Shown: positions 8,910 to 37,974 of the stretch, piece by piece
How positions within the stretch are numbered: position 1 is the first letter of the stretch
Layout: the number at the start of each line of letters is the position of its first letter
IMG/VR virus record: IMGVR_UViG_3300042549_004948
Span: 1-64,000 of that record
DNA: 64,000 bases
Source: a virus
Direction: 5' to 3' (one strand)
The notes under the pieces: model-generated
What the model was told of the DNA's origin: nothing
Database searches by the model: none
The model's input: the letters and a program-made list of their open reading frames with translations, nothing else
Made by a program: the position numbers and the translations under genes

Positions 8910-8947
8910 AATTCTACACCTTTCAAATAAATATTGAATAACTATAA

Positions 8948-10692: not shown

Positions 10693-11784
<1,092 letters not shown>

Positions 11785-11806
11785 TTTCAATAAATGGGTT
11801 TCGGGG

Positions 11807-11870: not shown

Positions 11871-11925
11871 ATATCAAATAAATATCTAGTATCTACTTAA
11901 AAATATGTATTCTTGAAAATACTTT

Positions 11926-12552
11926 TTACTTAATACAGCAAACTCCTGACTGAGAACATATGATCTCTGAAATAAGATCATGTATTTTATTAGTTGTAGA
12001 AGATACAGAATAGTCTTTAGACTCTCTTAGCCCGGCTACCGGTCTTACATACGCGCCATAAGTAGATGGAGTAGACACAAAGTCCCAACATATTAATTCT
12101 AGATCATCTTCTACTTGAACTAAACCTTCACCAATAGGTGTAGTAGTTCCCATAGCTCTAGATGAAATGCCGACTGTTATATTATTCTTAAACAATTCTC
12201 TTAATATATTTCCGGATGGAGTCGGTAGTATTTCTATGTCTCCATATAAGTCTTTACCGTTCCAATACAATTTCATAATGTTATGACTAACATTTTTAAG
12301 GTTAATAACTGATGACTCTGGATGATCTAATTCACCTAGCGCTCTATTTTCAGCTATTGGACCTGCCATATATACATCTACCTGCTCTTTTAATACCTGA
12401 TAAGGATAGATCCTTCTGTTAGCGTTTGGCTTGTCTGTGGCTTGCACCAAACCAGACACGATCATATTACCATTAGCCAGACGTTTAGCCTCGTTTAATG
12501 AACCAGGAAGCGGCTGAAATGCGTTGTATTCTATTAAGAGTTGTTTATTCAT
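11926..12552 (-). CDS. gp21: Prohead maturation protease (T4 gp21-like)
   Basis: NANRRIYP, ALGELDHP, VSH, GISSRAMG, WDFVSTPS. Confidence 0.92.
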   Translation of the reverse strand: MNKQLLIEYNAFQPLPGSLNEAKRLANGNMIVSGLVQATDKPNANRRIYPYQVLKEQVDVYMAGPIAENRALGELDHPESSVINLKNVSHNIMKLYWNGKDLYGDIEILPTPSGNILRELFKNNITVGISSRAMGTTTPIGEGLVQVEDDLELICWDFVSTPSTYGAYVRPVAGLRESKDYSVSSTTNKIHDLISEIICSQSGVCCIK

Positions 12553-13730: not shown

Positions 13731-13743
13731 ACTTTTATAAATA

Positions 13744-13875
13744 TTAGGATCTTCCTTGTCCACGATAGTTTTTTTCTGATCTATCATGTTTGTTAAACGA
13801 TTTCTTTGCAACCCCTCTTTTCTTTTTACCGAAATTGATCTTTATAGAACCGCCGGCTGATTTTGATTTTGCCAT
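13744..13875 (-). CDS. 43-aa basic protein ending YRGQGRS (not in ORF track)
   Basis: MAKSKSAGGSIKINFGKKKRGVAKKSFNKHDRSEKNYRGQGRS; TAATG overlap with upstream stop. Confidence 0.75.
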   Translation of the reverse strand: MAKSKSAGGSIKINFGKKKRGVAKKSFNKHDRSEKNYRGQGRS

Positions 13876-14794: not shown

Positions 14795-15643
14795 TTAAGC
14801 CTTTTTAAGCTCGTCAATTAAATCGCAATACTGAAGAATTCCTGAAATAGTCTCATCTTTGATCGATTGATTTTCTTTAATCGGCCTGATAAACTTTAGT
14901 ACTTCTTCTAGTTTGATTTTAACAACCTGATCTTTTGTAGATTCTTTTAATTCTATTAATTCACTTTTAATTGACTCTAATTCTTCATTTAAATAAGTCT
15001 TAAGATTCTTAGTGTCAGAAATATTAGTGATGTATTCTTTTAGCACTTCTTTTTGTCTCTCAGACAAGTCTTTATACTTGTTATTGAACTTCTCAATTAG
15101 AATTTTATATGTTAAAAGTCTAATCTCTTTATCTTCTTTCATAAACTCTTCTACTAAAGATCTAGGAGCTTTAGAATCGGCACCGTTTTTAAGGGTGATG
15201 TGTTCTAGAAGATTAATCTTATTTAGAAGAATTTGCTTAGTGTCAATAGTTTTTGCAGTCTGAGATTCAAATATAGTATAGATAGAAGCGAATGGCTTAT
15301 AGTTTTCTATTTTAGCTTTAAAGAAGTTATCTAATTCATAAGTACCCTTGATTTCTCTAATTAGGTTGTACTTCAATTTGTTAATCTTTTCAAAATCAAG
15401 CTTCTTATATTGCTCAATAATAGTAGAAATTAAAATCTCAGCCCTAGCTTCAGAAAGCTTTGGACTAGATGCAAAAGTACTATATAAGCTATATTCTTTA
15501 CCTAATTCGGTATTGCTAAAGTACTTCTTAAGGATTTTGACAGCCTTAGAGTCTTGATTATTTATTAAATCAGATGTAGTTTGTCTGACTAATAATTCGA
15601 ATAAAATACCGGTATTGCGATATTTTGAGTGTTTTATTGCCAT
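14795..15643 (-). CDS. Conserved hypothetical protein downstream of portal
   Basis: Likely start MAIKHSKYRNTGILFELL at 15643; late motif upstream. Confidence 0.75.
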   Translation of the reverse strand: MAIKHSKYRNTGILFELLVRQTTSDLINNQDSKAVKILKKYFSNTELGKEYSLYSTFASSPKLSEARAEILISTIIEQYKKLDFEKINKLKYNLIREIKGTYELDNFFKAKIENYKPFASIYTIFESQTAKTIDTKQILLNKINLLEHITLKNGADSKAPRSLVEEFMKEDKEIRLLTYKILIEKFNNKYKDLSERQKEVLKEYITNISDTKNLKTYLNEELESIKSELIELKESTKDQVVKIKLEEVLKFIRPIKENQSIKDETISGILQYCDLIDELKKA

Positions 15644-15684
15644 AGTTTTTTTATACAAGTCGACTAGTAATAAATATCTATATA

Positions 15685-17601: not shown

Positions 17602-19197
17602 TTATAAAAGCCATGTTAAATCTTCATTCATTTCTCCTTGAGCCGTATGATGTGTCATATTCCAAGGATTTTGATTATATTGATTGTTTGCGTTATATGA
17701 TATAGTGTTATCTTGTGTTTTAGTAAAACTATTTAAAGCTGCGTAAGTTAAGTTTTCTACCGTCTTCTTATATCTTAATGATGTTTCTCTCAAATACATT
17801 GCTACAGCAAAACTCATAACAAGATCATCATTATAACTCTGCATGGCTTGAGCTTTACCGTTCTTCCAGATAAACACTCTAAGCTCTTCTAATAATCTAA
17901 CCGATCTTATATTAGCTAGTTTATTTTCTATTGAGTCTCTCATCTTCTCTACAGCTAATGGCCTGGTTTTCTCAGTCATACTAAATCCAGGAACTAGTCC
18001 TGTTTGAGTATTGATTCTATCCACGTATTTTGTAAAGTCCATATTGCTGTCTTGCTTATAACTATAGTGGATATTTGTATATCCTCTTTCTAATACTGTC
18101 TGCACCACATCCCAACCTATATTATTATTTTCTACAACTAGTAGAGCATTATTATATTCAGAGGCTATGCTTAGTAATATATTGGCATAATCTCTTGTAT
18201 CTGGCTGTGACTTATATTCTGCAACCTGGGTAATTGATTCAATTTCAATAACATGAAAAGAAGAATAGTCATTACCGTCTCCGCGTGCAACGTCAGCAAC
18301 AACTGCGTAGTATTTAGTAGGGTCTGGATAATCCCAGATCCATAGCGCTCTGTCAAGCCCTCTTCTTTCAATCGGTTCTGATAACATATTTTCTTCATAC
18401 CAAGTTAGTATTTCTGGTTCTATTACACTATTACCTGAGGTAGCAAAGTCACAATCACATTCTTGCGCAGCATTTCGTTTACCTAATATCTTATCTTGCT
18501 CGTCTCTCCATACTTGATCTCTTTCAGGATGGACAGACCAAGGTAGCGATATCGGCAGAAATTTATTTTGTTGCTCTTGAGCAGACACATATGATTTGTG
18601 AAACCAATTGCCCACACCATTTGGAGTAGATAAAGCTATGCACCCACCACCAGTAGCCAACGTTTGTTGAGCCGCTGTAAAGATCTCCTCAATTCTGTCA
18701 ATGAACGCAGCCTCGTCTATGACTAGGAGTGATACCGCTTCAGAACGACCCGCGTCACCTGCCGCCGACACCGCTTTGATTTGAGAACCATTCGCTAGTC
18801 TAAGACTCAGTCTGTTATCTTCTGATGTTCCTATCTTAAGCCAAGTTGGTAGGTTCTGATAAGCAAATCTTACCTTTGTTACCATGTTCTTGGCGGTATC
18901 TTGCTTAGTCGCAATAATAAGAACATTCTTATCTTTATTGAACAACATTAACCATAAAGAATAAGCAGAAACAAGAGTAGATATACCTAGCTGTCTTGAC
19001 TTATTAATTATAGAGTAGTCATGCTTCTGAAACAATTTTAAAACCTTTTCTTGAAATGGATATAGATTAAAAAACTGCCTTCCTCTTTGTGGGTGTTGGA
19101 TCATATAGTACTTCTTCATGAAGTACACGGGATCCGTGGCACACTTAACAAACTCCTCCTTTATTCTTTCTTTTATCGTTATCTGTTGATCAGACAT
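17602..19197 (-). CDS. terL: Terminase large subunit (T4 gp17-like)
   Basis: LYPFQ, KSRQLGIST, IDEAAFI, LSTPNG, VADVARG, DDLVMS. Confidence 0.95.
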   Translation of the reverse strand: MSDQQITIKERIKEEFVKCATDPVYFMKKYYMIQHPQRGRQFFNLYPFQEKVLKLFQKHDYSIINKSRQLGISTLVSAYSLWLMLFNKDKNVLIIATKQDTAKNMVTKVRFAYQNLPTWLKIGTSEDNRLSLRLANGSQIKAVSAAGDAGRSEAVSLLVIDEAAFIDRIEEIFTAAQQTLATGGGCIALSTPNGVGNWFHKSYVSAQEQQNKFLPISLPWSVHPERDQVWRDEQDKILGKRNAAQECDCDFATSGNSVIEPEILTWYEENMLSEPIERRGLDRALWIWDYPDPTKYYAVVADVARGDGNDYSSFHVIEIESITQVAEYKSQPDTRDYANILLSIASEYNNALLVVENNNIGWDVVQTVLERGYTNIHYSYKQDSNMDFTKYVDRINTQTGLVPGFSMTEKTRPLAVEKMRDSIENKLANIRSVRLLEELRVFIWKNGKAQAMQSYNDDLVMSFAVAMYLRETSLRYKKTVENLTYAALNSFTKTQDNTISYNANNQYNQNPWNMTHHTAQGEMNEDLTWLL

Positions 19198-19889
19198 TAT
19201 TTATGTGTTACAGCAAGACCTATTACTAAAGCTCCAAGTACAAACTTTTGTATTTTACCCATTTTCATTCTTCTATCAAACTTCTTGATGTCTCCTTTTA
19301 AGCCATCAATTTGAATTTTATAGTTTTGCCCTTGCTCTATTTGTTTTTGTATAATTGATTGATAATTAGTTTCTTTTTGTCTAAAAACTGTAATTACTTG
19401 ATCTCTATTATTAAGAGACTGGGCTTGGGTTTGAATTACACTGTCTTGCGCAATTACTATTTTCTCATTCACCTCTCCTTCTTTTAAATCAACTACTACA
19501 GCCTTACTAACTTCAATAGGTAACATTGTAGTGTCACTAGAAACTTTATCATATTCCTCTTTATATGTAGCTACAAAGAAACTATCAACTTGAGTTGGTG
19601 TATAAGATAAAGCATCTTTAGCATCTTTTAAATCATCTTTAAGATCTTTTACCTTATCCTTTAAATATACGACTTTTTCTGCTAAATAATCATTATCTTT
19701 TTCTAGTACGCTAATTCCTATTTCTAGAGTATCATTTACTAAATGAATAGAGTCAATGTTTTGTTGAAGTGAGTCTATCTTTGCTTCATAGGGTTTGGTA
19801 TCAAATCTTTTTGGTTGTAAGATAAAAATATACCAGATGGCTAATAATGCTAATAAGGCTAATGCTGTACTAAATACTATCTTCTTCAT
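19197..19889 (-). CDS. Membrane-anchored coiled-coil protein, possible spanin-like lysis accessory
   Basis: N-terminal TM helix, long coiled coil, hydrophobic C-terminus, multiple D-S/T-hydrophobic sequons. Confidence 0.5.
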   Translation of the reverse strand: MKKIVFSTALALLALLAIWYIFILQPKRFDTKPYEAKIDSLQQNIDSIHLVNDTLEIGISVLEKDNDYLAEKVVYLKDKVKDLKDDLKDAKDALSYTPTQVDSFFVATYKEEYDKVSSDTTMLPIEVSKAVVVDLKEGEVNEKIVIAQDSVIQTQAQSLNNRDQVITVFRQKETNYQSIIQKQIEQGQNYKIQIDGLKGDIKKFDRRMKMGKIQKFVLGALVIGLAVTHK

Positions 19890-20223
19890 CTGAATCTAAT
19901 TTAGGGTTTTCAACTTGGTCTATTTGTTGTTTAAGTAATTTTATTCTATCAGGAATATTACCTACTGCTTTTTTATACCCGCCTACATCTTTCAGTTTTA
20001 GGATACCATCAGCATCTCTTTCAGTATACTTTGCTAGAATAGATTTTACTTGAGCTTGTAGATTTTGTAGCTCTTTTTTCTTCTTGTCAAGTCCTCTAAA
20101 GTCTTTTTCAGATTTTTTAAGGTCTGTTGTTGAAGGTTCTATATCATCTTCTGCCTCTTCTCTAATTTTAGAGATGATAGTAAGATTGTTCTCTGTTAAA
20201 TATTTTTCTAAGTTAAACGACAT
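19870..20223 (-). CDS. Hypothetical protein, putative internal head protein
   Basis: MSFNLEKYLTE leader; late motif upstream. Confidence 0.65.
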   Translation of the reverse strand: MSFNLEKYLTENNLTIISKIREEAEDDIEPSTTDLKKSEKDFRGLDKKKKELQNLQAQVKSILAKYTERDADGILKLKDVGGYKKAVGNIPDRIKLLKQQIDQVENPKLDSDEEDSI

Positions 20224-20250
20224 ATTGGTCTATTTACTTATAAATATTTA

Positions 20251-20496
20251 TTAATCCTGTAAATCGTCTTCTGATTTTACCCTTCTTAGTGGCCTAGATA
20301 ATTCTAACCATTTATCATAGTCGTACTTGATACCAAATAAATAGTATTCATCTGGCTTATTATGTCCTTTTAGATACATGATCGCGGGTCCGGTTGGACA
20401 GTGGGGTTTTACGATACCTTTATCGTCTTCGTAGATTTTAAGTATAATATTCTCTACTGTCTTAATAGTTCTATACTGCGGTTCTTTTTTAGCCAT
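20251..20496 (-). CDS. Hypothetical protein with HxxxGPA...EYYLFG motif
   Basis: 81 aa; preceded by TTGTATATT promoter-like motif. Confidence 0.65.
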   Translation of the reverse strand: MAKKEPQYRTIKTVENIILKIYEDDKGIVKPHCPTGPAIMYLKGHNKPDEYYLFGIKYDYDKWLELSRPLRRVKSEDDLQD

Positions 20497-20513
20497 AGAC
20501 TTAATTTATGATC

Positions 20514-20522
20514 AATATACAA
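20514..20522 (-). promoter_or_regulatory. Putative host-RNAP-type promoter core TTGTATATT
   Basis: Same core found at ~31869 and ~51170. Confidence 0.45.
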
Positions 20523-20539
20523 TAAAAATATAAACTAAA

Positions 20540-22066
20540 TTAATTAAAGTCTATAGTATTATCAAATTCTATATCGCTATCTTGTAAAGTATCTCCAAAT
20601 AAAAATTTAGTAAGAGAATATACTCCATTATCTATATAATCTTTAACTTTGTAAATATATGATTTTATAGTATCCATAACCCCTTCTTTTAGTTTAGTTG
20701 GATCTGATATTAAAGAAACAACGCTCCAAAATCTATATCTTCCTGTTTTTTCTCCTTTTAGTTTTTCAGAAGATGATTTAAATCTTACAGTTAATTTCAT
20801 CTGATCTGCTATCTTTGCTGCGTATCCTGAATTTTGAGTAGAATGCAATTTAGGGCTAGATAAATCTGGACTTACTGATAATACGTAATCAGCTGATGCA
20901 TCACTATTAGAACCAAATTTTTCATATCCTGACATTGCCTCTTGAGCAAACGCTATTTTAAATTCTGGGCTTTTATTAAAAAGATCTTCTAATTTACTAG
21001 ACATTTCTTTGTGGGCTTTATCTCCTGCCGTGAGCATTTTATTTTTACCTGATTTTAATCCAGCTTCTACTGCTCCAGATTTTGTATATCCTACTTCAAT
21101 AAATTTGTCAAATGTATCTAATACGGCTTTAGCTTCATCCGTCTCTAAAATACCAGGAACTTTTTTTGCCGCAGCATAGAAAGTAGCGACAGATTCATTT
21201 TTTCCTCCGGACATTAATTGAGAGTTTCCTACTTTTACAGATATCTTTTTATTTCCTAAAATAACATCTGTTTTAGGAGTTGTATTACTGGCTCCTTGAA
21301 TTTTCCAAAATTCAGTTAGTGTAGCTTTTTCTCCAGTTCTTCCTGTAGCTCTAGCAGATTTACCTTTTTGCAATCCTAAATCAATTATAGCCTCTTCAGC
21401 TTTTTTTACCATTGTTTTATTAGACTTCAGTTTGCTTAATTCATCTGGTAGTATTGCTCCTTTTGGAACAGGTATTCCATTGACTTTATACCAAGCATAA
21501 ACAAGAGCAGACTCAAATAAAGTTGCCTGTCCTGTTTCAGCCTCTTTCAATATAGCTTCTAATATTCTTGATTCTGTTAACTCCTCTCCGCCTTCTGGTT
21601 CAGATGTTTCTGATGGAGGTGTTGGTCCTGCTTCTTCTGTAGGACCTTCTTGATCTCTAGTAGCTTGTTCAGAACCTTCAGGACCTTTGGTCTTTAAAGG
21701 ATTTCCGTTCCTCAATATTCTTGAGATGGCAACCATGCATCTTTCTTTCTCGCCAATTGACATCAAATAATACTTCTTACCCTGAACAGTTGCTTCATAA
21801 GCCTTTCCCATGAACTGTAAAAAGAAGAATTCTCCATTATGAAGAACTACTTTAAATGTAGTTGGCTTAGGTGCTACTACATAAATTCCGGTTATATACT
21901 CCTCAAATGAAGGAGTCATTAAATACTCTAATGTATTCTTAAGACCTGCATATTTTTTCAATATAAACTGCATAGGATCATCCTCAAATGTAGAGGTTTC
22001 TGGCTCCATCCTATCTAACTCTTGTAAGAGTATAGTCTTTAGTATATCATGTTTTGACACAGGCAT
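20540..22066 (-). CDS. Two-part protein with C-terminal PD-(D/E)xK-like nuclease-fold domain
   Basis: N-domain, acidic Pro linker ending LTE/ILE/LKE, then E...TPKTD...KISVK motif. Confidence 0.55.
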   Translation of the reverse strand: MPVSKHDILKTILLQELDRMEPETSTFEDDPMQFILKKYAGLKNTLEYLMTPSFEEYITGIYVVAPKPTTFKVVLHNGEFFFLQFMGKAYEATVQGKKYYLMSIGEKERCMVAISRILRNGNPLKTKGPEGSEQATRDQEGPTEEAGPTPPSETSEPEGGEELTESRILEAILKEAETGQATLFESALVYAWYKVNGIPVPKGAILPDELSKLKSNKTMVKKAEEAIIDLGLQKGKSARATGRTGEKATLTEFWKIQGASNTTPKTDVILGNKKISVKVGNSQLMSGGKNESVATFYAAAKKVPGILETDEAKAVLDTFDKFIEVGYTKSGAVEAGLKSGKNKMLTAGDKAHKEMSSKLEDLFNKSPEFKIAFAQEAMSGYEKFGSNSDASADYVLSVSPDLSSPKLHSTQNSGYAAKIADQMKLTVRFKSSSEKLKGEKTGRYRFWSVVSLISDPTKLKEGVMDTIKSYIYKVKDYIDNGVYSLTKFLFGDTLQDSDIEFDNTIDFN

Positions 22067-22069
22067 AAT

Positions 22070-22546
22070 TTATTTTCTCTTCTTTTTACCTTTACCTATT
22101 TCCATTAAACTTTGAAGACTCATCTCCATATCTTCTGCATCTCCGGCTGGTAGTTCTTCTGTTCCATCAGGAAGTTCATCCATATCATGTTCGCCTCCAT
22201 TATATTCATGGTAGTTTTTAGAAGCTTGATTAATAAAGTTCTCGGCATTTGTAATATGATCTTGAATCCAAGCAGGAACGTCTTTCTCATCTTGGCCTAA
22301 CAAGTTCATTAATTGACTTGCCGAACTTATAATAGACTTAAGACTATTCTGAGCCATTGACACTTCATGGTCTTGGCCTTCACCTTCTTTCTTCATGCCT
22401 TTCTTTGCACGAAGTGCTTTAAAGTCAGCAGCTGTTATTTTATCTTTTGGTTCTGCAGCTCCTGCAATTTTTTCTTGATTTCCAGGAAGGTCTTTTTCGT
22501 TTAGCTCTCTCATTAAGATAGCTTTAAAGAATGCAATACTATTCAT
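22070..22546 (-). CDS. Hypothetical modular protein
   Basis: Likely start MNSIAFFK at 22546; KITAADFKALR and DHEVSMA...PAWIQDHIT modules. Confidence 0.7.
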   Translation of the reverse strand: MNSIAFFKAILMRELNEKDLPGNQEKIAGAAEPKDKITAADFKALRAKKGMKKEGEGQDHEVSMAQNSLKSIISSASQLMNLLGQDEKDVPAWIQDHITNAENFINQASKNYHEYNGGEHDMDELPDGTEELPAGDAEDMEMSLQSLMEIGKGKKKRK

Positions 22547-22547
22547 T

Positions 22548-22835
22548 TTATTTTTTCTTTTTAGATTTTTGTGCTCTTTTCCATAACTTAGCATCTGCTT
22601 TTCTAGCACCGCCTTTGCCTGTTATAAAACTATTCACTCTACCCATTCCCCACTGATGTTGACCGGCTCCTGGTCTATGTCCTGTTTTCCAGGCAGCAAG
22701 ACCTAAAGCATATACGCTTTTAAGTATAGATTTAGATATCCCAGAGGCTTTAGCTTTATTTGCTAATCCTTTTTCTACTGCGGCGTCATACTCAAGGAGT
22801 AGTAACTGCTTTAATATATCTAAATTATTTATCAT
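22548..22835 (-). CDS. Small basic protein (DUF5824-like)
   Basis: KAKASGIS...VY..GLAAWKTGHRPG...QWGMGRVNSF motif. Confidence 0.65.
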   Translation of the reverse strand: MINNLDILKQLLLLEYDAAVEKGLANKAKASGISKSILKSVYALGLAAWKTGHRPGAGQHQWGMGRVNSFITGKGGARKADAKLWKRAQKSKKKK

Positions 22836-23107
22836 TTTTTTTTCTTTTTGTCTAGTTTTTTTTTGACTATCTCTCTAGTTCTATCCATCTTTCTGGCATA
22901 AGCAGGGTCGTCCTTCTTATTAAAGTTGGCTTGTTGATTTAGTGAGCCTGTTATCTTACTCATATTACCTTTTCTAGTTTTGATTAACCAGTTAGCTAAC
23001 TTTTCTGCTGATAACTCTTTAAACTTTCCTTTTGCCTCTGGTGCATTGGAATGCTGAAACTTTAGTCTCTCTTCAAATAACTGTTGTAGTAATTCGTGAA
23101 GCTTCAT
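22832..23107 (-). CDS. Small basic hypothetical protein
   Basis: MKLHELLQQLFEE leader; ATGA overlap. Confidence 0.65.
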   Translation of the reverse strand: MKLHELLQQLFEERLKFQHSNAPEAKGKFKELSAEKLANWLIKTRKGNMSKITGSLNQQANFNKKDDPAYARKMDRTREIVKKKLDKKKKK

Positions 23108-23649
23108 TACTTTTCTTTTTTACCAAATCTTTTTGCATACGCAATAGTTGCAGCAGACTTTCTAGTCTTATACTTCTTTGTTTTATCTTTATCTATATAA
23201 TCGGCATCCCATTTACCATAAGCTGCAGGATCATCTGATTTTAGGTTCTTTCTTGCTTTTATATCTTTTTTCATCTGCGCAGCATCTTTAGTAAGATATG
23301 CAGCATTAACCTTACCTGTTTTCTTTGCCTCACTTATTCTAACACAATTAGGAACCATTCTATTCCCTTTCTTTTTCATACCGTCTTGTCTGTATCCATC
23401 CCAACAAGCCTCGTTTAAATTATGAAGTCCTAGATCTTTTAGTTTCTCATCAAAATCGGCTTTATCCATACCTTGAATAATATCCAAAATAGAATCTATA
23501 GGAGCTTCAGTTTGGCCAGCAAATGCTATTGATATTTCTCTTGCTTTATTAGGATTTCTTTTGTAGGAATCTATAATATTTTGCACTCCCCAATCATTTA
23601 ATCCCATTTCAGAGACCATTTCTTTTAATATGTCTTTTAACTTTATCAT
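23107..23649 (-). CDS. Modular hypothetical protein with CWxGY...MVPNCV motif
   Basis: MIKLKDILKE leader; LNE|ACWDGYRQDGMKKKGNRMVPNCVRISE module. Confidence 0.7.
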   Translation of the reverse strand: MIKLKDILKEMVSEMGLNDWGVQNIIDSYKRNPNKAREISIAFAGQTEAPIDSILDIIQGMDKADFDEKLKDLGLHNLNEACWDGYRQDGMKKKGNRMVPNCVRISEAKKTGKVNAAYLTKDAAQMKKDIKARKNLKSDDPAAYGKWDADYIDKDKTKKYKTRKSAATIAYAKRFGKKEK

Positions 23650-23963
23650 TTGTTTCTTATGATTAGCTCTCCTAATACCTCCATGCGTCCAACTTCACGT
23701 TGAAATTCAATTTGTGTCATATTTAATGATATGCTTTTTAATGTTTTTTCAAATTCTTTCACAGCAGCTTCTTTATCGAATTTACCCTCTTCTGCTTTTT
23801 TATAATAAGGAGCTTTTACTTTAAAATGATGCCATGTTAATAATGACAACCCACCTTTCTCTTCAGCAGTAGCTGCAATTTTAGCAGCGCCTTTAGCACG
23901 AGTAATAGCAAAATTTTCAAATGTTTCTTTTACTTCAGTTAGAATGTCCTTTAACTTAATCAA
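23646..23963 (-). CDS. Hypothetical protein
   Basis: TTG start, MIKLKDILTE leader. Confidence 0.65.
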   Translation of the reverse strand: MIKLKDILTEVKETFENFAITRAKGAAKIAATAEEKGGLSLLTWHHFKVKAPYYKKAEEGKFDKEAAVKEFEKTLKSISLNMTQIEFQREVGRMEVLGELIIRNK

Positions 23964-24219
23964 TTTTAGTTATTTTAATTTTTAAAGGTCCAGTCCCTTT
24001 AATAGTCCTGTGCCAAATATACTTTGGTATAAATATCGGCCTATCGATTAAAGTTGGGAGCTCGTTGTCTAATTGTACTTGCCAGTCTGTAGATTCTATG
24101 GCCTCTACTATCCTGTCTTCTTGATCTCTATGCCACATGAGTTCAATAGGATCTATATCTTGATCAAAAACCCTAGTAATTGTTTTATTTTCTTGTTGTA
24201 TGTCCTGGTACGGTTTCAT
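23956..24219 (-). CDS. Small cupin-like protein
   Basis: ELMWHRDQEDR...WQVQLDNELP...FIPKYIWHRTIKG. Confidence 0.65.
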   Translation of the reverse strand: MKPYQDIQQENKTITRVFDQDIDPIELMWHRDQEDRIVEAIESTDWQVQLDNELPTLIDRPIFIPKYIWHRTIKGTGPLKIKITKID

Positions 24220-24823
24220 TTATATCATAGTAATAAGAGTCAGAATCTTCAGATACCCACCTATCAGAAACAGACTCTACATTTAATAGTTCAGTATCTA
24301 CCTTGATCATTTTAGGATCTACAGGAAACTCTTTAGTTATCCAGTTAGAGTCTTTCCAGTATATTCTATTGTTAGGCATACACATCAAATAACCATCGTC
24401 TGCCACTAAAACATGGCCACATTTATAGTCTGATGGTTCGTTTGAATAGGTATTGTTTTGCCAATCTATAGTTATTAAATATGTTGCCCAGACAAGGGTT
24501 TTATCTCTCAACATAACTTTACACCTCTTATCTTTTAGAAAATCGTATTTGATAACTGCCGCATCTGGGCCAAAGCAATCCCATAATTGTTTGAAATAGT
24601 ACGGAATGTCTTTAGTCGGAGGCTTTATGTATATCTCAGAAATAGGAACTCTACTTCTAAGCATGCCATAATCAGTCATCACATGAAATGTAAGTATCTT
24701 AGCATCTGCAGATTGAACTCCAAAAGCATAACAATTGTGAAAGACATTATCGTCTTTTATATTTTTTGTAAAGTAAGATTGCTTAACAAGGCATTTAAAG
24801 CCTTCTATATTATAGTTTAGCAT
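24185..24823 (-). CDS. Conserved phage hypothetical protein
   Basis: LTFHVMTDYG, QLWDCF, YLITIDW, KCGH, PNNRIYW motifs. Confidence 0.7.
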   Translation of the reverse strand: MLNYNIEGFKCLVKQSYFTKNIKDDNVFHNCYAFGVQSADAKILTFHVMTDYGMLRSRVPISEIYIKPPTKDIPYYFKQLWDCFGPDAAVIKYDFLKDKRCKVMLRDKTLVWATYLITIDWQNNTYSNEPSDYKCGHVLVADDGYLMCMPNNRIYWKDSNWITKEFPVDPKMIKVDTELLNVESVSDRWVSEDSDSYYYDINETVPGHTTRK

Positions 24824-24840
24824 AACTCTGTCCTAATTTA

Positions 24841-25347
24841 TTAAAGTTTAATAGGAGCATAACCAGATCCATATGGAGCAGCTTTGCCTGATTGTGGATC
24901 TGATGTTTCTTTTATTTTATTTAAACGCTGTGTTTTTTCTTTAGATGCTTCTTTACGTTTTTCTATATATTCTAAAGCTTTTTTTAATCTGCTTTTAACT
25001 TCAGGATTCTTAGAGTTTTTATAAGCCGCTCTAACTCTTTGATGTACAAGATTTATAATCTGTGATTGTCTAGCGTGAGATTTTGATTTAAAATCACTTT
25101 TAGATAACGTGTCTCTTATATCTTGAACAGTCTTAAATTTTACCTTAACAGTATCTTTAGGATTCTCATCTGTGTAAAGCCTTCTATCAGATCCTTTTGG
25201 TTTTTTTCCTGTTCCTTTTTTAGGATCTGCTTCAGTTATATCAGGATCATTAGTCCAGGTATCAGACGCTTTGTATCTAACCTTCTTAACCATATTTGCT
25301 CTATATGGTGGATACATCTCATTTAATATGTCAATTAGTTTTATCAT
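24841..25347 (-). CDS. Hypothetical basic protein (LYTDENP motif)
   Basis: MIKLIDILNE leader; ITE|ADPKKGTGKKPKGS and IKE|TSDPQSGKAAPYGSGY modules. Confidence 0.7.
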   Translation of the reverse strand: MIKLIDILNEMYPPYRANMVKKVRYKASDTWTNDPDITEADPKKGTGKKPKGSDRRLYTDENPKDTVKVKFKTVQDIRDTLSKSDFKSKSHARQSQIINLVHQRVRAAYKNSKNPEVKSRLKKALEYIEKRKEASKEKTQRLNKIKETSDPQSGKAAPYGSGYAPIKL

Positions 25348-25350
25348 ATA

Positions 25351-26196
25351 CTACCAAAATCCTGAGAAGTTGGATTTCAACCCTATTAGTTTTGCATATC
25401 TTGGAAGCCTACAAGACCAATACCTTGCGCTTGTTTTATCTTTAGCTTGTGCACATTTATGTCTTGCTGCAAAACTCTTTCTTGCTGCTGGATTATTAAT
25501 CTTAGCAGACAATCCTGATGTATCTCCGAATGATACTTTTTTTATACCGCCATCTGGCTTGCGTACATAAACGTAGAACTTCTTTGAACCTCCACGCTTT
25601 GGCTTATTTAATTCAGGTTGTTTCTTTTTCGCTTTTACTTCTAACAAAAAGTCAATAGTCATCGGGAAATCAAGAGGTACTTTTACCCCATTATACTGTC
25701 CACAATTTCCTAGTTCTGTATTCTTAAAGTACCAACTGTCTTGTTCTGATAGTTGTAATTTCCCACTATCATATAAAGATCTAGCCTCTTCAAATAGCTC
25801 AAGAAATTTTGTTGATTGAGGGCGGTAAATTGATTCGTTAAGATCAATCTTATTTTGTAAGTGATAGTTAAGCCCTTCTGATATTAATAGTCTATTAGCT
25901 GTTTCATGAAGCTGAATTTGTCTTGAACAGCAATCTTCATTTAAACTATTGTTTGTACCACATTTATGACAAATATAAGGATCTTTTCCTCCATCAGATA
26001 GTTTCCATTCCCAACCACAATTTTTACATTTGATCATTTCTGCTTCTTCAAGACCTGCCTTAACTAATTTATCATAGTATTTAGGATCTTCTTTAATATG
26101 ATCCATAGCAATTTTTAAAGCCACTTTTGGATCATTAGTATGTTCCATTTCAACTTTAACGCCTTTCTTGATTTGCTTAAGTAAGGCCTTATCCAT
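25351..26196 (-). CDS. Multi-module protein: DUF5661-like + Zn ribbon + DUF6321-like
   Basis: GVKVEMEHT...IAMDH.KEDPKYY; CKNC...CHKC; KKFYVYV...VSFGD...SFAARHKC...ARYWSC. Confidence 0.7.
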   Translation of the reverse strand: MDKALLKQIKKGVKVEMEHTNDPKVALKIAMDHIKEDPKYYDKLVKAGLEEAEMIKCKNCGWEWKLSDGGKDPYICHKCGTNNSLNEDCCSRQIQLHETANRLLISEGLNYHLQNKIDLNESIYRPQSTKFLELFEEARSLYDSGKLQLSEQDSWYFKNTELGNCGQYNGVKVPLDFPMTIDFLLEVKAKKKQPELNKPKRGGSKKFYVYVRKPDGGIKKVSFGDTSGLSAKINNPAARKSFAARHKCAQAKDKTSARYWSCRLPRYAKLIGLKSNFSGFW

Positions 26197-26567
26197 TATT
26201 GTAAAAATTTAAGCTTATACTTTGTAGATTCAATAAGATCAACGATCTCATCTACTTGATTTTGTATGTAAGAATCCTGAGGTATTTGTTTTCTGATACC
26301 TTCAACGAATTTAGAAAGACCGTCAAAATACATTCTAGCATTATTGTCTTCTCTGATAGTATCGGCCATTCTATAGCCAGTTATAATACCATAGCGTCCT
26401 TGAATACCTTCAGCTAAGCCGTCTATTTTATCTACAATCTCATCGTAGTATTTATTTAAAGCTTTGTGGGCTGCATAAGATCCAACTCCTTGTACTTGAA
26501 GGTGGTATATATGAGCTTGATTTCTGCTCTGCATTAATGTTCCTAAAAGTAGTCCTACTGATTCCAT
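26196..26567 (-). CDS. Ferritin/Dps-like four-helix protein (DUF5856-like)
   Basis: AHIYHLQ...SYAAHKALNKYYD...DGLAE..QGRYG...QNQVDEI...TKYKL. Confidence 0.75.
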   Translation of the reverse strand: MESVGLLLGTLMQSRNQAHIYHLQVQGVGSYAAHKALNKYYDEIVDKIDGLAEGIQGRYGIITGYRMADTIREDNNARMYFDGLSKFVEGIRKQIPQDSYIQNQVDEIVDLIESTKYKLKFLQ

Positions 26568-27202
26568 TACTTTTCTTTTTTATCTTCTGCTTTTGCTATT
26601 TGTTTCTTAGATTTTTCAATCTTTTCCATCTTGGTCATAAGATCATCGATCTGTCCTGCTATCTTTGCAATGCCCTCTTTATGTTTAGAAGCATTCTTAG
26701 GATCTTCTTTAGCCATATCAACATGCTCCTTACGCTTCTTTTCTAGTTGATCGATAACCTTCTTGAGTTTATCTCCAACTTTACCTTTCTTTTCTTCTAG
26801 TTGTAAAGCTTCATCACAATATGCTTTATACGCTTCTACAGCGATTCTTCTTGCTTCTGTTTCATCGTCATGTACTGAATAAACATCATGCATTCCTATT
26901 CCTTTTTCTTGAATTCCCATTAAAGGGTTGATCTCAAGAACCATATCAGATTCTGGAAGTTCACCGGAAGGCTTACGAACAACATACATACTAGGAGTTC
27001 CCATGTTTTCTTTCTTAGTCTTTTTAACTTTTTTAGGTAGGCCTTTATGTTTAGTTGAGGCAAAATCTTCTACGTCTCCTTTTTTCATTGATTTAGCCAT
27101 TTCTTTTGCTTTTTCTGATGCTTTTCCGGGTTTCATATCTCCTGTTTGTAAGGCTCTAACGATACCCATTAATTTTTGTTGTTGTTGAGATGTAGCTGGC
27201 AT
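26567..27202 (-). CDS. Protein with N-terminal DUF3008-like domain
   Basis: MPATSQQQQKLMG...DFASTKHKGLPKKV; late motif upstream. Confidence 0.65.
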   Translation of the reverse strand: MPATSQQQQKLMGIVRALQTGDMKPGKASEKAKEMAKSMKKGDVEDFASTKHKGLPKKVKKTKKENMGTPSMYVVRKPSGELPESDMVLEINPLMGIQEKGIGMHDVYSVHDDETEARRIAVEAYKAYCDEALQLEEKKGKVGDKLKKVIDQLEKKRKEHVDMAKEDPKNASKHKEGIAKIAGQIDDLMTKMEKIEKSKKQIAKAEDKKEK

Positions 27203-27216
27203 ATACTCTAAATTTA

Positions 27217-27795
27217 CTAATAAATATCCTTGTTCTTCAGTTCTTCTATTTTCTTTTTAACCTCGTCGTACATCTTAGCCTTATCTCCGCCAGACCAGGA
27301 TTCTATATCTCCTGCCTCTGAAACAAATGTATCTTTATCTAACATCCATGATTCTACTGCCTGTTCAAACTCTTCTAGGCTAGCGTTCTTATTGGCATTT
27401 ATAACATTTTTGGCGTATTCATCCCATTTGCCTTCTAGCTTTATTTTACTTTCCATATCTACCACACAATCTAAACACATCTTATGAATAGAGAACATCT
27501 TCTTATTGAGATCATTGTCTTTCATTGACTTTTTACAACTAGGACAACATAGAGGTAGGTGAACTAAGTACTTGAATTTGTCTAACTTCGTAATGGACTG
27601 TTTGATGTTATTCTTTATAGTCCAGACTTTGCCATTCTCTTCCCAGGTGTCTCCTTCTTTATGCTCATCTTTTTTATTTTCCCAACCTCCAATTATTTGA
27701 GTCCTATCACCAGATTTACCTGTTATTAGGTTTCTCATTCTTTGAACATCACTTTTCTTAAACTCTTTCTTCAGCGTAGACTCTTTAGGTATCAT
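27217..27795 (-). CDS. Hypothetical Zn-finger protein
   Basis: HKEGDTWEENGKVW, CPSC...CLDC. Confidence 0.7.
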   Translation of the reverse strand: MIPKESTLKKEFKKSDVQRMRNLITGKSGDRTQIIGGWENKKDEHKEGDTWEENGKVWTIKNNIKQSITKLDKFKYLVHLPLCCPSCKKSMKDNDLNKKMFSIHKMCLDCVVDMESKIKLEGKWDEYAKNVINANKNASLEEFEQAVESWMLDKDTFVSEAGDIESWSGGDKAKMYDEVKKKIEELKNKDIY

Positions 27796-27797
27796 AA

Positions 27798-28691
27798 CTA
27801 CTTTATTCTAAATTTACTTAATATATCTTTTGTTTTATTAATATCTTTATGCAATATTGAAATACCTCCCAGAGCTTTCCATGGAGCCAAGTTTGGCCAA
27901 TAGTCATCTATTAGCATAGAGTTCTTTGGATCTGAAGTTAGATATTCATGCTTATTTCCTGTTTGGGCAAATAATATTTTCTTTGGTTGTGGATTAAGAT
28001 TTTTTTCTACCCATATCTTCTTTCCTTCTTTTGCATATAAAAACTTACTAGGACTAGTTAGAATGATAGGTCTATATTTACCTATAATAGACCAAAGTTC
28101 TTGACCTCCAGGCATCCAATTCATCTTGCTCCAGAATTCAACACCAGCCTCATTTACGGCATCTTCAAATCCTTTAGCTCCTTTTTCTCCTCTATATTCC
28201 ATAGGCATAACTCCATAATAATGTTCAAATCTATCATCAAAATCGCAGAGAACTCCATCCATATCACAATAGATTTGTATTCCTCTTGAATCTTGTGCTT
28301 CGTATATCTGCTTAAGGGATGGCATTAAATGCTCATAGATCATGTCGTGATTCTTACCAAATTCACGCATCATCATTCCTGCTAAAGCATTAGCTTGATT
28401 CTCTATATTTGAGCCAGTCTTTCCAGAATCGGCCACAAGCATATTCAATTCTCTTTGTCTATGATGAACTAATTCGTGGCCTAGAGTTCTAAGTATATCA
28501 GCTAAATTACGATTCCCGGTATATACTTCTAGTCTATTTGTATCAGGAGAATATTGACCAAAACTCTTTCTTTCTACTGCCCACTCGCGATCGTTTGTAA
28601 ATTCTATAATAGGGAGCTTATTAATATTAAGCTGGTCTTTACAAAATTGTATAAACTCTTCAATTATATTTTGTCTTTGTTGATCTATCAT
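27798..28691 (-). CDS. Fusion: HExxH Zn-metallopeptidase-like domain + HAD 5'(3')-deoxyribonucleotidase
   Basis: RTLGHELVH...ENQANA; IYCDMDGVLCDF, ILTSP, K..W, LIDD. Confidence 0.8.
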   Translation of the reverse strand: MIDQQRQNIIEEFIQFCKDQLNINKLPIIEFTNDREWAVERKSFGQYSPDTNRLEVYTGNRNLADILRTLGHELVHHRQRELNMLVADSGKTGSNIENQANALAGMMMREFGKNHDMIYEHLMPSLKQIYEAQDSRGIQIYCDMDGVLCDFDDRFEHYYGVMPMEYRGEKGAKGFEDAVNEAGVEFWSKMNWMPGGQELWSIIGKYRPIILTSPSKFLYAKEGKKIWVEKNLNPQPKKILFAQTGNKHEYLTSDPKNSMLIDDYWPNLAPWKALGGISILHKDINKTKDILSKFRIK

Positions 28692-29278
28692 TTCATTATT
28701 TTCAACAGTCTTCCAAATACATCTTTTGTGACTCCTTTATTATATGCTGCATCTGGTATAAACTTTTCGAACTCTTCGTAATTACCATCTTTTATATATG
28801 ATCTCATTTGAGTTGAGCTAATTCTTTCAAACTGATCTGGTATAATTTCTTTTCTAACTTTATTAGGAAATCTTTTTTGTATAGAATCGAAATACCCTAT
28901 ACCTTCAACTTCTTCTGTTGCGCCGGCAACATAGATAGGGTCTACATCCGGGTTTTCTGCCATGAAAGAGAAGACATCTTTTATAGGAGTCGATTCTTTA
29001 GATATCGATACGCTAATTTTAGGATTAGGTTCTGCATTAAGATACTGTTTCCATATTTGAAAAGAGTCTTCAGCAGTAATGCCATACTTAGTAACATTAG
29101 AAATAATAACATATACTTTATTTATATACGGTTTAGATGCTAAGTATTTTGCTGCTTCAAAGTGTCCTTTATGAGGAGGCTTAAATTTACCAGGATAAAA
29201 ACAAGGTCCTACATCAGAAGACGCTTCTTTTAATATATCTTCGGCTATTTGACGGCCTAATTGTTCTGGATTAATCAT
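28688..29278 (-). CDS. HIGH-superfamily (cytidylyl/adenylyl) nucleotidyltransferase-like protein
   Basis: YPGKFKPPHKGH and ISSTQMR motifs. Confidence 0.8.
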   Translation of the reverse strand: MINPEQLGRQIAEDILKEASSDVGPCFYPGKFKPPHKGHFEAAKYLASKPYINKVYVIISNVTKYGITAEDSFQIWKQYLNAEPNPKISVSISKESTPIKDVFSFMAENPDVDPIYVAGATEEVEGIGYFDSIQKRFPNKVRKEIIPDQFERISSTQMRSYIKDGNYEEFEKFIPDAAYNKGVTKDVFGRLLKIMK

Positions 29279-30060
29279 GATTTAATAAAGGATTTAGCTT
29301 TATTCACAACCTGTGACATATCAGATGTTTTTAACTTTTCTACTTGTTTTTCAATGTTATCGAACTGCCCTGATAGAATATCGATTTGTTGGTTTACTAA
29401 CTCTTTAGACTTTGCTATTTCATCCGGAGTTTTTTCTTTAGCTGGGTCTTTTCTAAATGTTGATTTATATTGGCCAGAAGACAGAATATCTTCAAAGTAT
29501 TCTTTTAACTTATCTGCTTTATGAGCCTTTTCAAACTCTCCGACCATTTTCTTTTCCTCTTCAGACATCTCTGTTGGTACTAAATAGAACATATCTCCAA
29601 ACATACTTTTATATGCTTCAATATTTTTGTATATATTATTCCAACTAGATAGTACTCCAACGGTTGGCACCTTTCTTTCTCTTGCGAAGTTACGAAGGAA
29701 GCTAACTATGGGGTTGGTATAAATCATTACCATCATTATATCATAGCCAGAATTTTTTATACCCTCAATTTTTTGTACATTAGTTGCAGTAGTATCATAA
29801 AGAAAATTATCTCCAGCATTTATAACACTTGGAAGATCTACCTTGTCTATTTGAATAGCTGCTCTAGCCAGATTATTATACATTGGACTGTCTTTGTCCT
29901 CTACATACTTGTCTGCATTAAGCTCTCCCCAGCCTGCTTTTTGCAGATCTGGTTTGATTTGTCTAGCAAAATAAGACTTTCCAGCGCCTGCGCCTCCAGC
30001 CATTATAATAGCTTTTTTGCCTTCTTTGGCTTCTAATAATAAGTCTAATAGCTTTATCAT
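29275..30060 (-). CDS. Zeta-toxin-like P-loop kinase
   Basis: IIMAGGAGAGKS, NAD, YDTT, RNFARERKVP lid. Confidence 0.75.
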   Translation of the reverse strand: MIKLLDLLLEAKEGKKAIIMAGGAGAGKSYFARQIKPDLQKAGWGELNADKYVEDKDSPMYNNLARAAIQIDKVDLPSVINAGDNFLYDTTATNVQKIEGIKNSGYDIMMVMIYTNPIVSFLRNFARERKVPTVGVLSSWNNIYKNIEAYKSMFGDMFYLVPTEMSEEEKKMVGEFEKAHKADKLKEYFEDILSSGQYKSTFRKDPAKEKTPDEIAKSKELVNQQIDILSGQFDNIEKQVEKLKTSDMSQVVNKAKSFIKS

Positions 30061-30074
30061 ACTACTTATAAATA

Positions 30075-30869
30075 TTAATCTACTAACTTAACAGTATTCG
30101 GAAGTGTTAATAGTTCAATTTCTGTCTCTGGATGCATAATTTTATATGTCTCATAGGTATGGAGGAACATATTGAAGTACTCGTCTAAGGTCTTTTTTCC
30201 TTCAATAATCTCCCAACCGGCTCCTTGCATTTTCTTTCCAGACTTATCAGCTCCTCGTTTTGAAGACTTAAGCCATATGATACCGTTACGATCAACCTTC
30301 TCTCCAAACCTTTCTTCATATGCCTTAGTGTAGGCTGACATTTGTAAGTGATAGCTTTCATGAATTGCATTTGACGTTTTGATATCTAGTACCCACCTTT
30401 GATTATCGATCTCTACAAGTAGATCCAATGTTCCTGAGTATTTATGAGTATCGCTAAACATAAACTCTTCTGATAGGATTAGCTTTGGTTTATAAGTTGT
30501 CCAGAAATCGGTAAAAGATAAAATCATTTTCCATACATGGGTATGATAATTAACATGCCCGGTTGATTCAATCCAGCGAATCTCTTCTCCATTCAAGAAT
30601 TTTTCTATTGCTTCATGAACTTGCGTACCTTCATCGCCGGCTCTACGCATAACAATATCAGCATTATGTCCCATATCTTTTATCCATGTTTCAAAGAACT
30701 GACCTTTAGGAAAATAACCCAAGATAGTTGTAACAGACGGATAGAAAACGCCAGGACTGCGTTGATAATACCTAGAGTCGTGCAATGTTATTTGTCTTAA
30801 TTCAGGATCTGTCTCGACAATTCGTTTTAAGAACTTGTCCTTTTGGATGTTCTTAGATTTTTCAATCAT
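30075..30869 (-). CDS. PD-(D/E)xK exonuclease
   Basis: YPSVTTIL, GTQVHEAIE, YSGTLDL...LDIKTS...QMSAY. Confidence 0.85.
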   Translation of the reverse strand: MIEKSKNIQKDKFLKRIVETDPELRQITLHDSRYYQRSPGVFYPSVTTILGYFPKGQFFETWIKDMGHNADIVMRRAGDEGTQVHEAIEKFLNGEEIRWIESTGHVNYHTHVWKMILSFTDFWTTYKPKLILSEEFMFSDTHKYSGTLDLLVEIDNQRWVLDIKTSNAIHESYHLQMSAYTKAYEERFGEKVDRNGIIWLKSSKRGADKSGKKMQGAGWEIIEGKKTLDEYFNMFLHTYETYKIMHPETEIELLTLPNTVKLVD

Positions 30870-32818: not shown

Positions 32819-33460
32819 ATGATCAAATTATCTGCCGAACAGATTATGGAGAATCTAGATAAGTTTTATTCCATAATAAATAAATACCTTACTGGAGAAA
32901 GGAAAGATGCGCTTATTGAGTTTTATAAATCTATTGAAGAAACTTTAGCTACTTCGCCTGCTTCAACTAAGTTAGATCATCACAATGCTTTTGCTGGAGG
33001 TTATGTTGATCATGTTATTAGGGTGGTTGAAGGATCTTTAGTATTTGAGAAAGTATGGGATAAGTTTGGCCAGAAAAAGAATTATACTACAGAAGAATTA
33101 GTATTCTCGGCAATCAACCACGATCTTGGTAAGTTAGGCACTAATGAAGAACCTATGTATCTCCCTAACGATTCTCAGTGGCATATTGAAAAACAAGGGG
33201 CTGTTTATAAGTATAACCCTAATATAACTTACATGAGAGTTGCAGATAGGAGTTTATTCTATCTTCAACAAGCAGGTATTCCAATATCAGAGAATGAATA
33301 TCTAGCTATAAAACTTCATGATGGTCTTTATGAAGAATCAAATAAAGCATATTATATTACGTATAATAAAGATAACGAATTAAGATCTAATATAGCATAT
33401 ATCTTACATCAAGCAGACATGATGGCAAGTAAAGTAGAATTACAAATAAATAAAATATGA
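32819..33460 (+). CDS. HD-domain phosphohydrolase (YhaM-like)
   Basis: PAS..HHNAF.GGYVDH, NHDLGK, AIKLHDG, LHQAD. Confidence 0.85.
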   Translation: MIKLSAEQIMENLDKFYSIINKYLTGERKDALIEFYKSIEETLATSPASTKLDHHNAFAGGYVDHVIRVVEGSLVFEKVWDKFGQKKNYTTEELVFSAINHDLGKLGTNEEPMYLPNDSQWHIEKQGAVYKYNPNITYMRVADRSLFYLQQAGIPISENEYLAIKLHDGLYEESNKAYYITYNKDNELRSNIAYILHQADMMASKVELQINKI

Positions 33461-37530: not shown

Positions 37531-37974
37531 ATGGGACAATTAGACCAATTAAGAAAGCTTATAAGAGAAGAACTCAGGTCCGTTATCAAGGAGGAGCTTC
37601 CTAAAATATTAAAGGAAAGCTATAAGCCTGTCATGTCTGATCCTAAAAAGAACCTTCAGGAGCAGGTTAAATCAAAAATACCAGGCACATTAAATACTCA
37701 TGCATCTAGACCTCAAATCAAATTTGCAGGTAATAATCCTATGGCAGCCTTATTAAATGATACTGCTAATAGTATGTTAAATGAAGACTTTTCTATGACA
37801 TCTGCCGATGTACACCCAGGGATGGGTTTCCAGCCTAAAGAGGTTTCTGTAGGATCTGTTGAAGGAATGCTTGGATCAGCTAGACCTAGCTCAAATATAG
37901 ACGCTGTTCAAATAAATGAAGTTCCTGATTTTTCTGGCCTAATGGCTAAGTTTAAAGAGAGAGGCGAAATATAA
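37531..37974 (+). CDS. Hypothetical protein, putative head-internal
   Basis: LRKLIREELRSVIKEELPKILKE leader; late motif upstream. Confidence 0.65.
   Translation: MGQLDQLRKLIREELRSVIKEELPKILKESYKPVMSDPKKNLQEQVKSKIPGTLNTHASRPQIKFAGNNPMAALLNDTANSMLNEDFSMTSADVHPGMGFQPKEVSVGSVEGMLGSARPSSNIDAVQINEVPDFSGLMAKFKERGEI

Follow-up and report, generated by a model that had tools for sequence, protein, structure and literature searches.

The capsid-targeting sequence (CTS) of bacteriophage T4 is the textbook example of how a phage packs proteins into its head so that they can be injected. To our knowledge, experimental evidence of this type of head loading is confined to T4; related starts have been noted in closely related T-even phages. 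Here we analyze a short N-terminal peptide that is shared by at least ten otherwise unrelated proteins encoded on the minus strand between positions 19870 and 30060 of a 64,000-nucleotide stretch of viral DNA (IMG/VR record IMGVR_UViG_3300042549_004948, positions 1 to 64,000; hereafter the window). The window makes up the initial 64 kb of one virus contig, which is 162,469 bp long and estimated to be 95% complete, and its source is an uncultured T4-like lake phage with a Bacteroidota-type host. The shared peptide is probably a T4-style capsid-targeting and processing leader that serves a much larger set of cargo proteins, enzymes included.

In T4, the CTS is found on the internal proteins (IPs) IPII and IPIII, related propeptides are found on IPI and Alt, and gp21 removes them (Mullaney and Black 1996; PMC9026906, PMC3012670, PMC9958956). 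Mutagenesis of IPIII linked positions 4 and 7 to targeting and positions 8 and 10 to processing, the CTS has been suggested as a possible general device of T4-like phages, and engineered delivery by CTS fusions is already established for T4 (PMC9026906). The proposal of a first-pass annotation of the window, that the shared peptide might be usable for engineered protein delivery, is therefore not a new idea; a tag working in Bacteroidota phages would extend T4-style CTS engineering to other hosts. The same annotation contrasted this phage with T4 and its three IPs; the head proteins that T4 processes number more than three and include Alt, gp24, gp67, gp68, gp21 and gp22.

The T4 CTS and the leader described here have the same format. 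Both span 10 residues with hydrophobic residues at positions 4, 7 and 8, an acidic residue at position 6 and Glu at position 10, and both head unrelated proteins. The positions mapped by mutagenesis match in class rather than identity (Leu4, Ile/Leu7, Leu8 and Glu10 here versus Tyr4, Phe7, Ile8 and Glu10 in T4), and only Met1 and Glu10 are identical to IPII and IPIII. Like T4, this phage encodes a gp21-type protease, and several of its candidate cargos are small and basic, as T4 internal proteins are. Unlike in T4, there are at least ten tagged genes per genome, enzyme folds and multi-module proteins are among their products, leader lengths vary from 9 to 20 residues, the host is of Bacteroidota type, and the system is predicted from sequence.

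Two further groups of phages invite comparison. Polymorphic internal-protein loci with CTS-like starts on diverse basic proteins were reportedly described in T-even phages by Repoila et al. in 1994. Such loci, also cited as reference 69 of PMC9026906, resemble the present one in placing one conserved leader before exchangeable, fast-evolving and clustered cargo genes, but the lineage studied here is far more distant, its cargo repertoire is much larger and its modules are fused at cleavage-type joints. In the giant phages phiKZ, 201phi2-1 and SPN3US, a protease related to gp21 cleaves many head and ejection proteins on the C-terminal side of Glu (PMC9026906, PMC5694885, PMC10052503). The redundant sites in their propeptides and the packaging of dozens of proteins resemble the system proposed here, whereas their propeptides are long, follow a small-residue-x-Glu rule and share no short N-terminal tag. 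Our phage also differs from the giant-phage set in its protease, which has a strong Pfam match to S77 and only a weak match, below cut-off, to S80. In the literature we found no paper describing this tag: a search with the leader string returned only the T4 CTS string, and other searches on the tag returned only T4 and giant-phage work.

The ten tagged genes of the block are given below by window position, where a strict leader is the 10-residue peptide M-I-K-L-x-D-I/L-L-x-E.

29275-30060, minus strand: P-loop kinase-like domain right behind a strict leader (codons 30031-30060); Pfam Zeta_toxin 5e-10, PHROG ATPase
28688-29278, minus strand: NMNAT/NadD-like nucleotidyltransferase with an 18-residue leader ending I-L-K-E and a short linker, as judged by AlphaFold2 (AF2) and Foldseek
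24841-25347, minus strand: basic 168-residue protein of no known family, strict leader (25318-25347); predicted mature part with an isoelectric point (pI) of 10.0
23646-23963, minus strand: basic 105-residue protein, four-helix by AF2, strict leader (23934-23963, TTG start); alignment A2
23107-23649, minus strand: strict leader (23620-23649), module A and module B with an L-N-E joint, delimited by module arrangements in relatives
22832-23107, minus strand: basic 91-residue protein, pI 10.4, 12-residue leader ending L-F-E; motif in 82% of orthologue N-termini
22548-22835, minus strand: DUF5824 domain (Pfam 2.7e-15), pI 10.8, 15-residue leader ending L-L-E
22070-22546, minus strand: 158-residue protein, 17-residue leader ending L-N-E, probable start at the ATG at 22546
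20540-22066, minus strand: 508-residue protein, 16-residue leader ending L-Q-E; motif in 96% of 24 distinct orthologue N-termini
19870-20223, minus strand: 117-residue protein, 11-residue leader ending L-T-E; motif in 26 of 26 distinct orthologue N-termini

The four strict leaders noted at first pass are all present on the minus strand, at the open reading frame (ORF) starts 23649, 23963, 25347 and 30060 (the TTG start of the ORF at 23963 gives an L in its raw translation), and so are six looser variants, in 19870-20223, 20540-22066, 22070-22609, 22548-22835, 22832-23107 and 28688-29278. A six-frame search of the whole genome (162,469 bp) for [IK]-K-L-x-[DE]-[IL]-L-x-E gives exactly four matches, each at residue 2 of one of the four strict-leader ORFs, while the chance expectation for the strict pattern at residue 2 of the 211 encoded proteins is 2e-5 to 1e-4. 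A loose pattern, defined as two hydrophobic residues, any residue and Glu, ending at residue 6-20, occurs in 31 of the 211 proteins versus 15.2 +/- 3.4 in internal windows of the same proteins. The 19-gene block contributes nine of these 31 proteins (Fisher p = 3.4e-4). Together, the block, the protease, the capsid protein and a small number of genes beyond the window explain the excess of about 16; the other 17 matches are at chance level.

Past the leader, no two tagged proteins resemble each other at E < 0.01, and the leader codons of their genes differ at synonymous sites. The leader is therefore a peptide-level motif under selection, and the synonymous differences rule out a DNA-level repeat as its source. 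Its tightness was assessed in related loci by fixing only the first four residues, which yielded 28 distinct N-termini. Glu occupies position 10 in 24 of these (background 7%), a hydrophobic residue fills position 7 in 93% and position 8 in 100%, and a second Glu at position 14, four residues past Glu10, is fivefold enriched.

Conservation was tallied in 80 related loci, counting distinct orthologue N-termini for each family. The motif is kept in 82-100% of orthologues of 19870, 20540, 22548, 22832, 23107, 23646, 28688, the capsid protein, the protease and 14795, and in 0% for the terminase, portal, phoH, 20251, 24185, 25351, 26196, 26567 and 27217. Conservation is thus bimodal, with families either tagged or untagged. 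Too few usable N-termini were available to score 24841, 29275 and 22070, and the orthologues seen of these three keep the leader, so that all ten tags of the block are kept in orthologues and the original count of ten candidates holds. The only family with an intermediate value, 27798-28691, was rejected as tagged: no more than 27% of orthologues retain its I-I-E-E, which is aligned with non-Glu residues in related locus L097, indicating a chance match.

The tag is also portable, as had been proposed. In IMG/VR, a degenerate nucleotide pattern encoding exactly this 10-residue leader matched 98 stretches, and in the 80 of these that were examined the leader heads at least 35 unrelated cargo families of 41-407 residues. 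An S77 protease is encoded in 12 of 20 leader-bearing contigs, including 3/3 that are complete and 8/8 at completeness of at least 54%. An independent complete genome of 181.6 kb (G002), which shares 58 of the 211 genes and has a major capsid protein 53% identical to that of our phage, carries nine strict leaders, two adjoining the terminase gene and seven in tandem elsewhere. Its proteins also have the loose motif in excess (41 versus 21 +/- 4 expected).

The sites at which such leaders might be cut can be compared with those of the head module itself.

11926-12552, minus strand: prohead protease of T4 gp21 type (MEROPS S77); Pfam Peptidase_S77 6e-22
10494-10679, minus strand: predicted propeptide of the major capsid protein (gene 9003-10679), 62 N-terminal residues ending V-V-E62
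10693-11790, minus strand: acidic scaffold in gp22-like position, with 23 hydrophobic-x-Glu sites
14795-15658, minus strand: head-module protein adjoining the portal, with a conserved I-L-F-E at about residue 21

The protease is 26% identical to T4 gp21 (BLASTP, E 1e-18; T4 comparison sequences were taken from NC_000866), and gp21 residues His85 and Ser140 align to its H77 and S130, which are invariant in 14 relatives. T4 gp21 is reported to remove its own first nine residues (PMC9958956). The T4 gp24 propeptide is 10 residues long. The protease of our phage retains the L-L-I-E of gp21 at residues 5-8; L5, L6 and I7 are nearly invariant in the 14 relatives, and the motif is kept across all clades sampled. 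All 10 aligned capsid proteins, T4 gp23 among them, have Glu at the position of Glu62 (alignment A4), with a hydrophobic residue at the second position ahead of it in every case; in gp23 this Glu is Glu65, the known maturation site. By this alignment the 62-residue N-terminus is homologous to the T4 gp23 delta region, with the site between V-V-E62 and S63. The capsid protein had also been listed as starting with a leader. Its N-terminus reads as quoted, and its first 11 residues resemble the T4 gp24 propeptide pattern, but the L-L-T-E there is conserved only within a close clade, and the alignment of gp23 Glu65 to E62 rules it out as the homologous maturation site. The I-L-F-E motif of 14795-15658 occurs in 13/13 distinct orthologue N-termini, and a homologue is present in Flavobacterium phage immuto, the nearest cultured phage (capsid protein identity 56%).

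Hydrophobic-x-Glu is common to the leaders, the protease N-terminus, the capsid maturation site and the joints at which phages exchange or fuse protein modules. In 23107-23649, the leader precedes a 66-residue module A, and module B starts just past L-N-E. Module B lies right behind the leader Glu in five relatives, Leu-x-Glu precedes it in every fused form, and it matches internal parts of many PHROGs. An NT5C-like module occurs in four contexts, each time preceded by hydrophobic-x-Glu: in immuto (gp087) it comes after an N-terminal leader, whereas in related loci L097 and L099 and in 27798-28691 its position is internal. Likewise, the adjacent kinase, NMNAT-like and peptidase/nucleotidase-like genes occur elsewhere as fusions behind one leader, as in L099, where leader, kinase and nucleotidase form one ORF, and one PHROG family spans the NMNAT-like and DUF5824 proteins that are encoded by separate genes in our phage. 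A complex prediction for the protease (A1) with the 105-residue cargo (A2) scored 0.20 (mark 0.32) and was used neither way.

A further multi-module protein of the block is encoded by 25351-26196 (minus strand). It lacks an N-terminal leader and comprises DUF5661, a Cys4 zinc-ribbon module bounded by L-E-E and L-N-E, and more pieces. The same zinc-ribbon module is fused in frame before an M-I-K-L leader in two related loci (L057:3826-4479 and L062:5476-6111), and therefore the leader can lie inside a protein.

Models and alignments of the cargos indicate that the leader is an appendage added to folded proteins, because low-confidence leaders precede confident folds, the linker behind them is variable and an archaeal homologue aligns only past the leader. 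The AF2 model of 28688-29278 has a predicted local distance difference test (pLDDT) score of 86, with a leader helix at residues 4-17 that scores about 50 and a confident fold from residue 24. Foldseek matches this fold to NadD/NMNAT (E 4.5e-7), archaeal NMNAT MJ0541 aligns only from query residue 27, and the leader is present in 7/7 distinct orthologue N-termini. For 23646-23963, overall pLDDT is 88, the leader scores 54 and a helical bundle is predicted for residues 15-103. In this family (alignment A2), four leader residues, K3, L4, L8 and E10, never vary even among members only 50% identical overall, and the linker behind the leader varies in length, with an insertion of 7-13 residues there. 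The orthologue in immuto (gp082) also starts with a leader of this pattern, and a fold search of BFVD returned only one homologue, which is uncharacterised.

In 29275-30060 the P-loop strand starts about ten residues past the leader, and a PDB sequence search with this kinase-like cargo gave no match. Leader length varies among orthologues of 22548-22835, and the DUF5824 domain always begins right past the Glu. The longest ORF at 22070-22609 has a GTG start at 22609 that would overlap the upstream gene by 62 nucleotides; the true start is probably the ATG at 22546, because most orthologues begin at that Met with the same leader. Paralogues of 19870-20223 lie outside the window at genome positions 64027-65377, and two immuto genes directly upstream of the terminase gene start as this protein does. 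Five small cargos are basic (pI 9.4-10.8). PHROGs assign no structural or internal-protein label to any cargo.

By analogy with T4, we infer binding to the core, cleavage, packaging and injection. The leader would dock its protein onto the scaffolding core inside the prohead during head assembly, and the protease encoded by 11926-12552 would cut after the Glu that ends the leader and at similar hydrophobic-x-Glu joints within multi-module proteins. Once freed, the proteins would remain inside the head until they are delivered to the host along with the DNA. The set of cargos would include at least ten proteins from 19870-30060 and about five encoded elsewhere, among them small basic proteins, the P-loop kinase-like protein and the NMNAT-like protein.

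The earlier proposal of a head-loading tag gains from the portability of the peptide, its conservation, the hydrophobic-x-Glu rule and the match to T4 CTS positions; packaging and cleavage themselves rest on the T4 analogy, because no virion proteome, N-terminal sequence or expression timing was found for the phage, immuto or the contig relatives. Several other observations weigh against loading by this leader. Homology to the T4 CTS cannot be established, because 10 residues are too few for any statistic. The residue past the leader Glu is unrestricted, whereas the T4 sites read have Ala or Ser there, and several candidates are acidic (pI 4.1-5.4). About eight genes within 19870-30060 carry no leader, so that the segment originally delimited as a cargo block does hold ten candidates but is not uniform cargo. 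Most leader genes of G002 lie about 65 kb from its head module. Moreover, the co-occurrence with an S77 protease could be a lineage effect, because all leader-bearing contigs are T4-like.

Three other explanations of the peptide were weighed. It might be a propeptide that the protease removes for control rather than delivery, with nothing injected: enzymes might be kept tethered or inactive pending activation of the prohead protease, or helpers might enter the prohead and then be degraded and expelled like scaffold fragments. A cleavage-type motif and the link to the protease would fit this equally well, some candidates are acidic, as scaffold proteins are, and three T4 core proteins, gp22, gp67 and gp68, are broken down and exit the head (PMC9958956). 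We nevertheless regard a purely regulatory propeptide as unlikely, as the cargos are folded enzymes and basic small proteins instead of repetitive acidic scaffold-like chains, and in T4, proteins with a leader of this format are retained and injected. An amphipathic N-terminal helix that serves some other partner without proteolysis, for oligomerisation, for localisation to a membrane or assembly site, or for recognition by a modifying enzyme, also appears improbable. The peptide is indeed predicted to be helical and amphipathic, and the leader cluster of G002 is far from head genes. However, the invariant terminal Glu, the second Glu four residues on and module boundaries exactly past Glu fit a cleavage site and would not be needed by a docking helix alone, and the protease and capsid protein obey the same rule at their own sites. 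A radical-SAM enzyme as the modifying partner was ruled out by the lack of a PF04055 match in the 95%-complete genome, while the control matched in 14/14 reference genomes.

It is very improbable, and close to excluded, that the tag lacks a peptide function and is a by-product of A+T-rich codons or of what translation initiation demands in a host lacking Shine-Dalgarno sites. Genomic G+C content is 33%, codons for Ile, Lys and Leu are abundant in the leader, and no Shine-Dalgarno sequences are visible upstream of the window genes. Even with N-terminal composition included, however, the expectation is still 1e-4 versus four observed; synonymous codons vary while the residues stay constant, only some families are tagged, and the tag is kept across 50% sequence divergence.

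If the peptide is a head-loading leader, the principle would be old and widespread among environmental T4-like phages, with a different consensus tag, with modules that can be joined or separated at protease joints and with at least ten cargos, some of them enzymes, in each genome. Dozens of "hypothetical" genes would become a defined class acting in the first seconds of infection, and the leader would supply a sequence rule for finding such proteins in metagenomes. More speculatively, and with considerable doubt on our part, environmental T4-like phages might possess a plug-in cargo system in which one leader and hydrophobic-x-Glu joints load any gene or genes and the head protease releases the products. 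Our phage might in this way inject, together with its DNA, a ready-made toolkit for nucleotides and nicotinamide adenine dinucleotide (NAD), comprising the NMNAT-like transferase, the P-loop kinase and, in relatives, a fused 5'-nucleotidase. Such a toolkit could act before the phage expresses any gene, for example against NAD- or nucleotide-depleting host defences.

The tagged genes belong to a minus-strand series running from 31.8 kb to 9 kb that encodes a primase, the leader block (30060-19870), a membrane protein, the terminase (17602-19197), a T4-type portal, three head-module proteins, the S77 prohead protease, the acidic scaffold and the Gp23-family capsid protein. Pfam matches identify the head module as T4-like (Gp23 2.6e-79, Portal_T4 6.8e-72, Peptidase_S77 6e-22). 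A megablast search of this module against cultured phages gave no match, and a related terminase is encoded in at least 555 IMG/VR stretches. The element ATATTTAT follows gene orientation (51 versus 13 copies in the genome) and lies 11-30 nucleotides before tail, baseplate, scaffold and head-module genes. Its copies in the window, located by sequence match, are as follows.

30068-30075, minus strand: ATATTTAT, 15 nucleotides before the first leader gene
27220-27227, 24029-24036 and 20240-20247, minus strand: ATATTTAT within the block
15670-15677 and 11878-11885, minus strand: ATATTTAT before head genes
8927-8934 and 13737-13744, minus strand: further copies of ATATTTAT
before 34503, 37531, 45985, 63187 and 63513, plus strand: copies of ATATTTAT

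From its placement we infer that ATATTTAT is a candidate late promoter, one that would leave very short leaders before the genes. The block has four copies, as head and tail genes have, which counts in favor of head loading.

About five more leader candidates lie outside the window, at genome positions 70596-70985, 71034-72074, 131992-132765 and 64027-65377 (loci L183 and L184). One has a strict M-I-K-L start, and three have ATATTTAT upstream. The product of 71034-72074 has a weak DUF6934 match, and a search for related loci with this gene returned a single near-identical contig. Within the window, a 213-residue protein that heads a plus-strand operon (32819-33460) starts M-I-K-L, has I-M-E at residues 9-11 and has no Pfam match; it may be another tagged protein.

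Variant tags were also observed. An 87-residue protein of the block (23956-24219, minus strand) starts M-K-P-Y-Q-D-I-Q-Q-E, which is identical to the T4 IPII/IPIII CTS at 5 of 10 positions with two conservative changes, and so is closer to it than the M-I-K-L leaders are. The pattern is kept in the one orthologue seen. This protein may not be processed, because the residue two before the Glu is polar. A second leader type of ~20 residues, roughly x-E-L-R-K-L-I-R-E-E-I-x-K-V-L-x-E, has two Glu-ending sites and heads a 147-residue protein (37531-37974, plus strand) with ATATTTAT 13 nucleotides upstream. It also heads eight unrelated proteins of G002 (loci L186-L194), and similar starts occur in immuto.

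Two immuto genes (NC_055915, 5327-5641 and 10697-11698) were deposited as 'tRNA(Ile2) C34 agmatinyltransferase' and 'cob(I)alamin adenosyltransferase'. Their homologues in our phage, small leader-bearing proteins, lack Pfam domains of these kinds, and the deposited names are probably annotation artefacts. Outside the window, a GroEL-sized gene (538 residues) and a GroES-sized gene (97 residues) lie side by side at genome positions 132813-134734; judged from N-termini and lengths only, the pair appears to encode the phage's own GroEL/GroES-like proteins.

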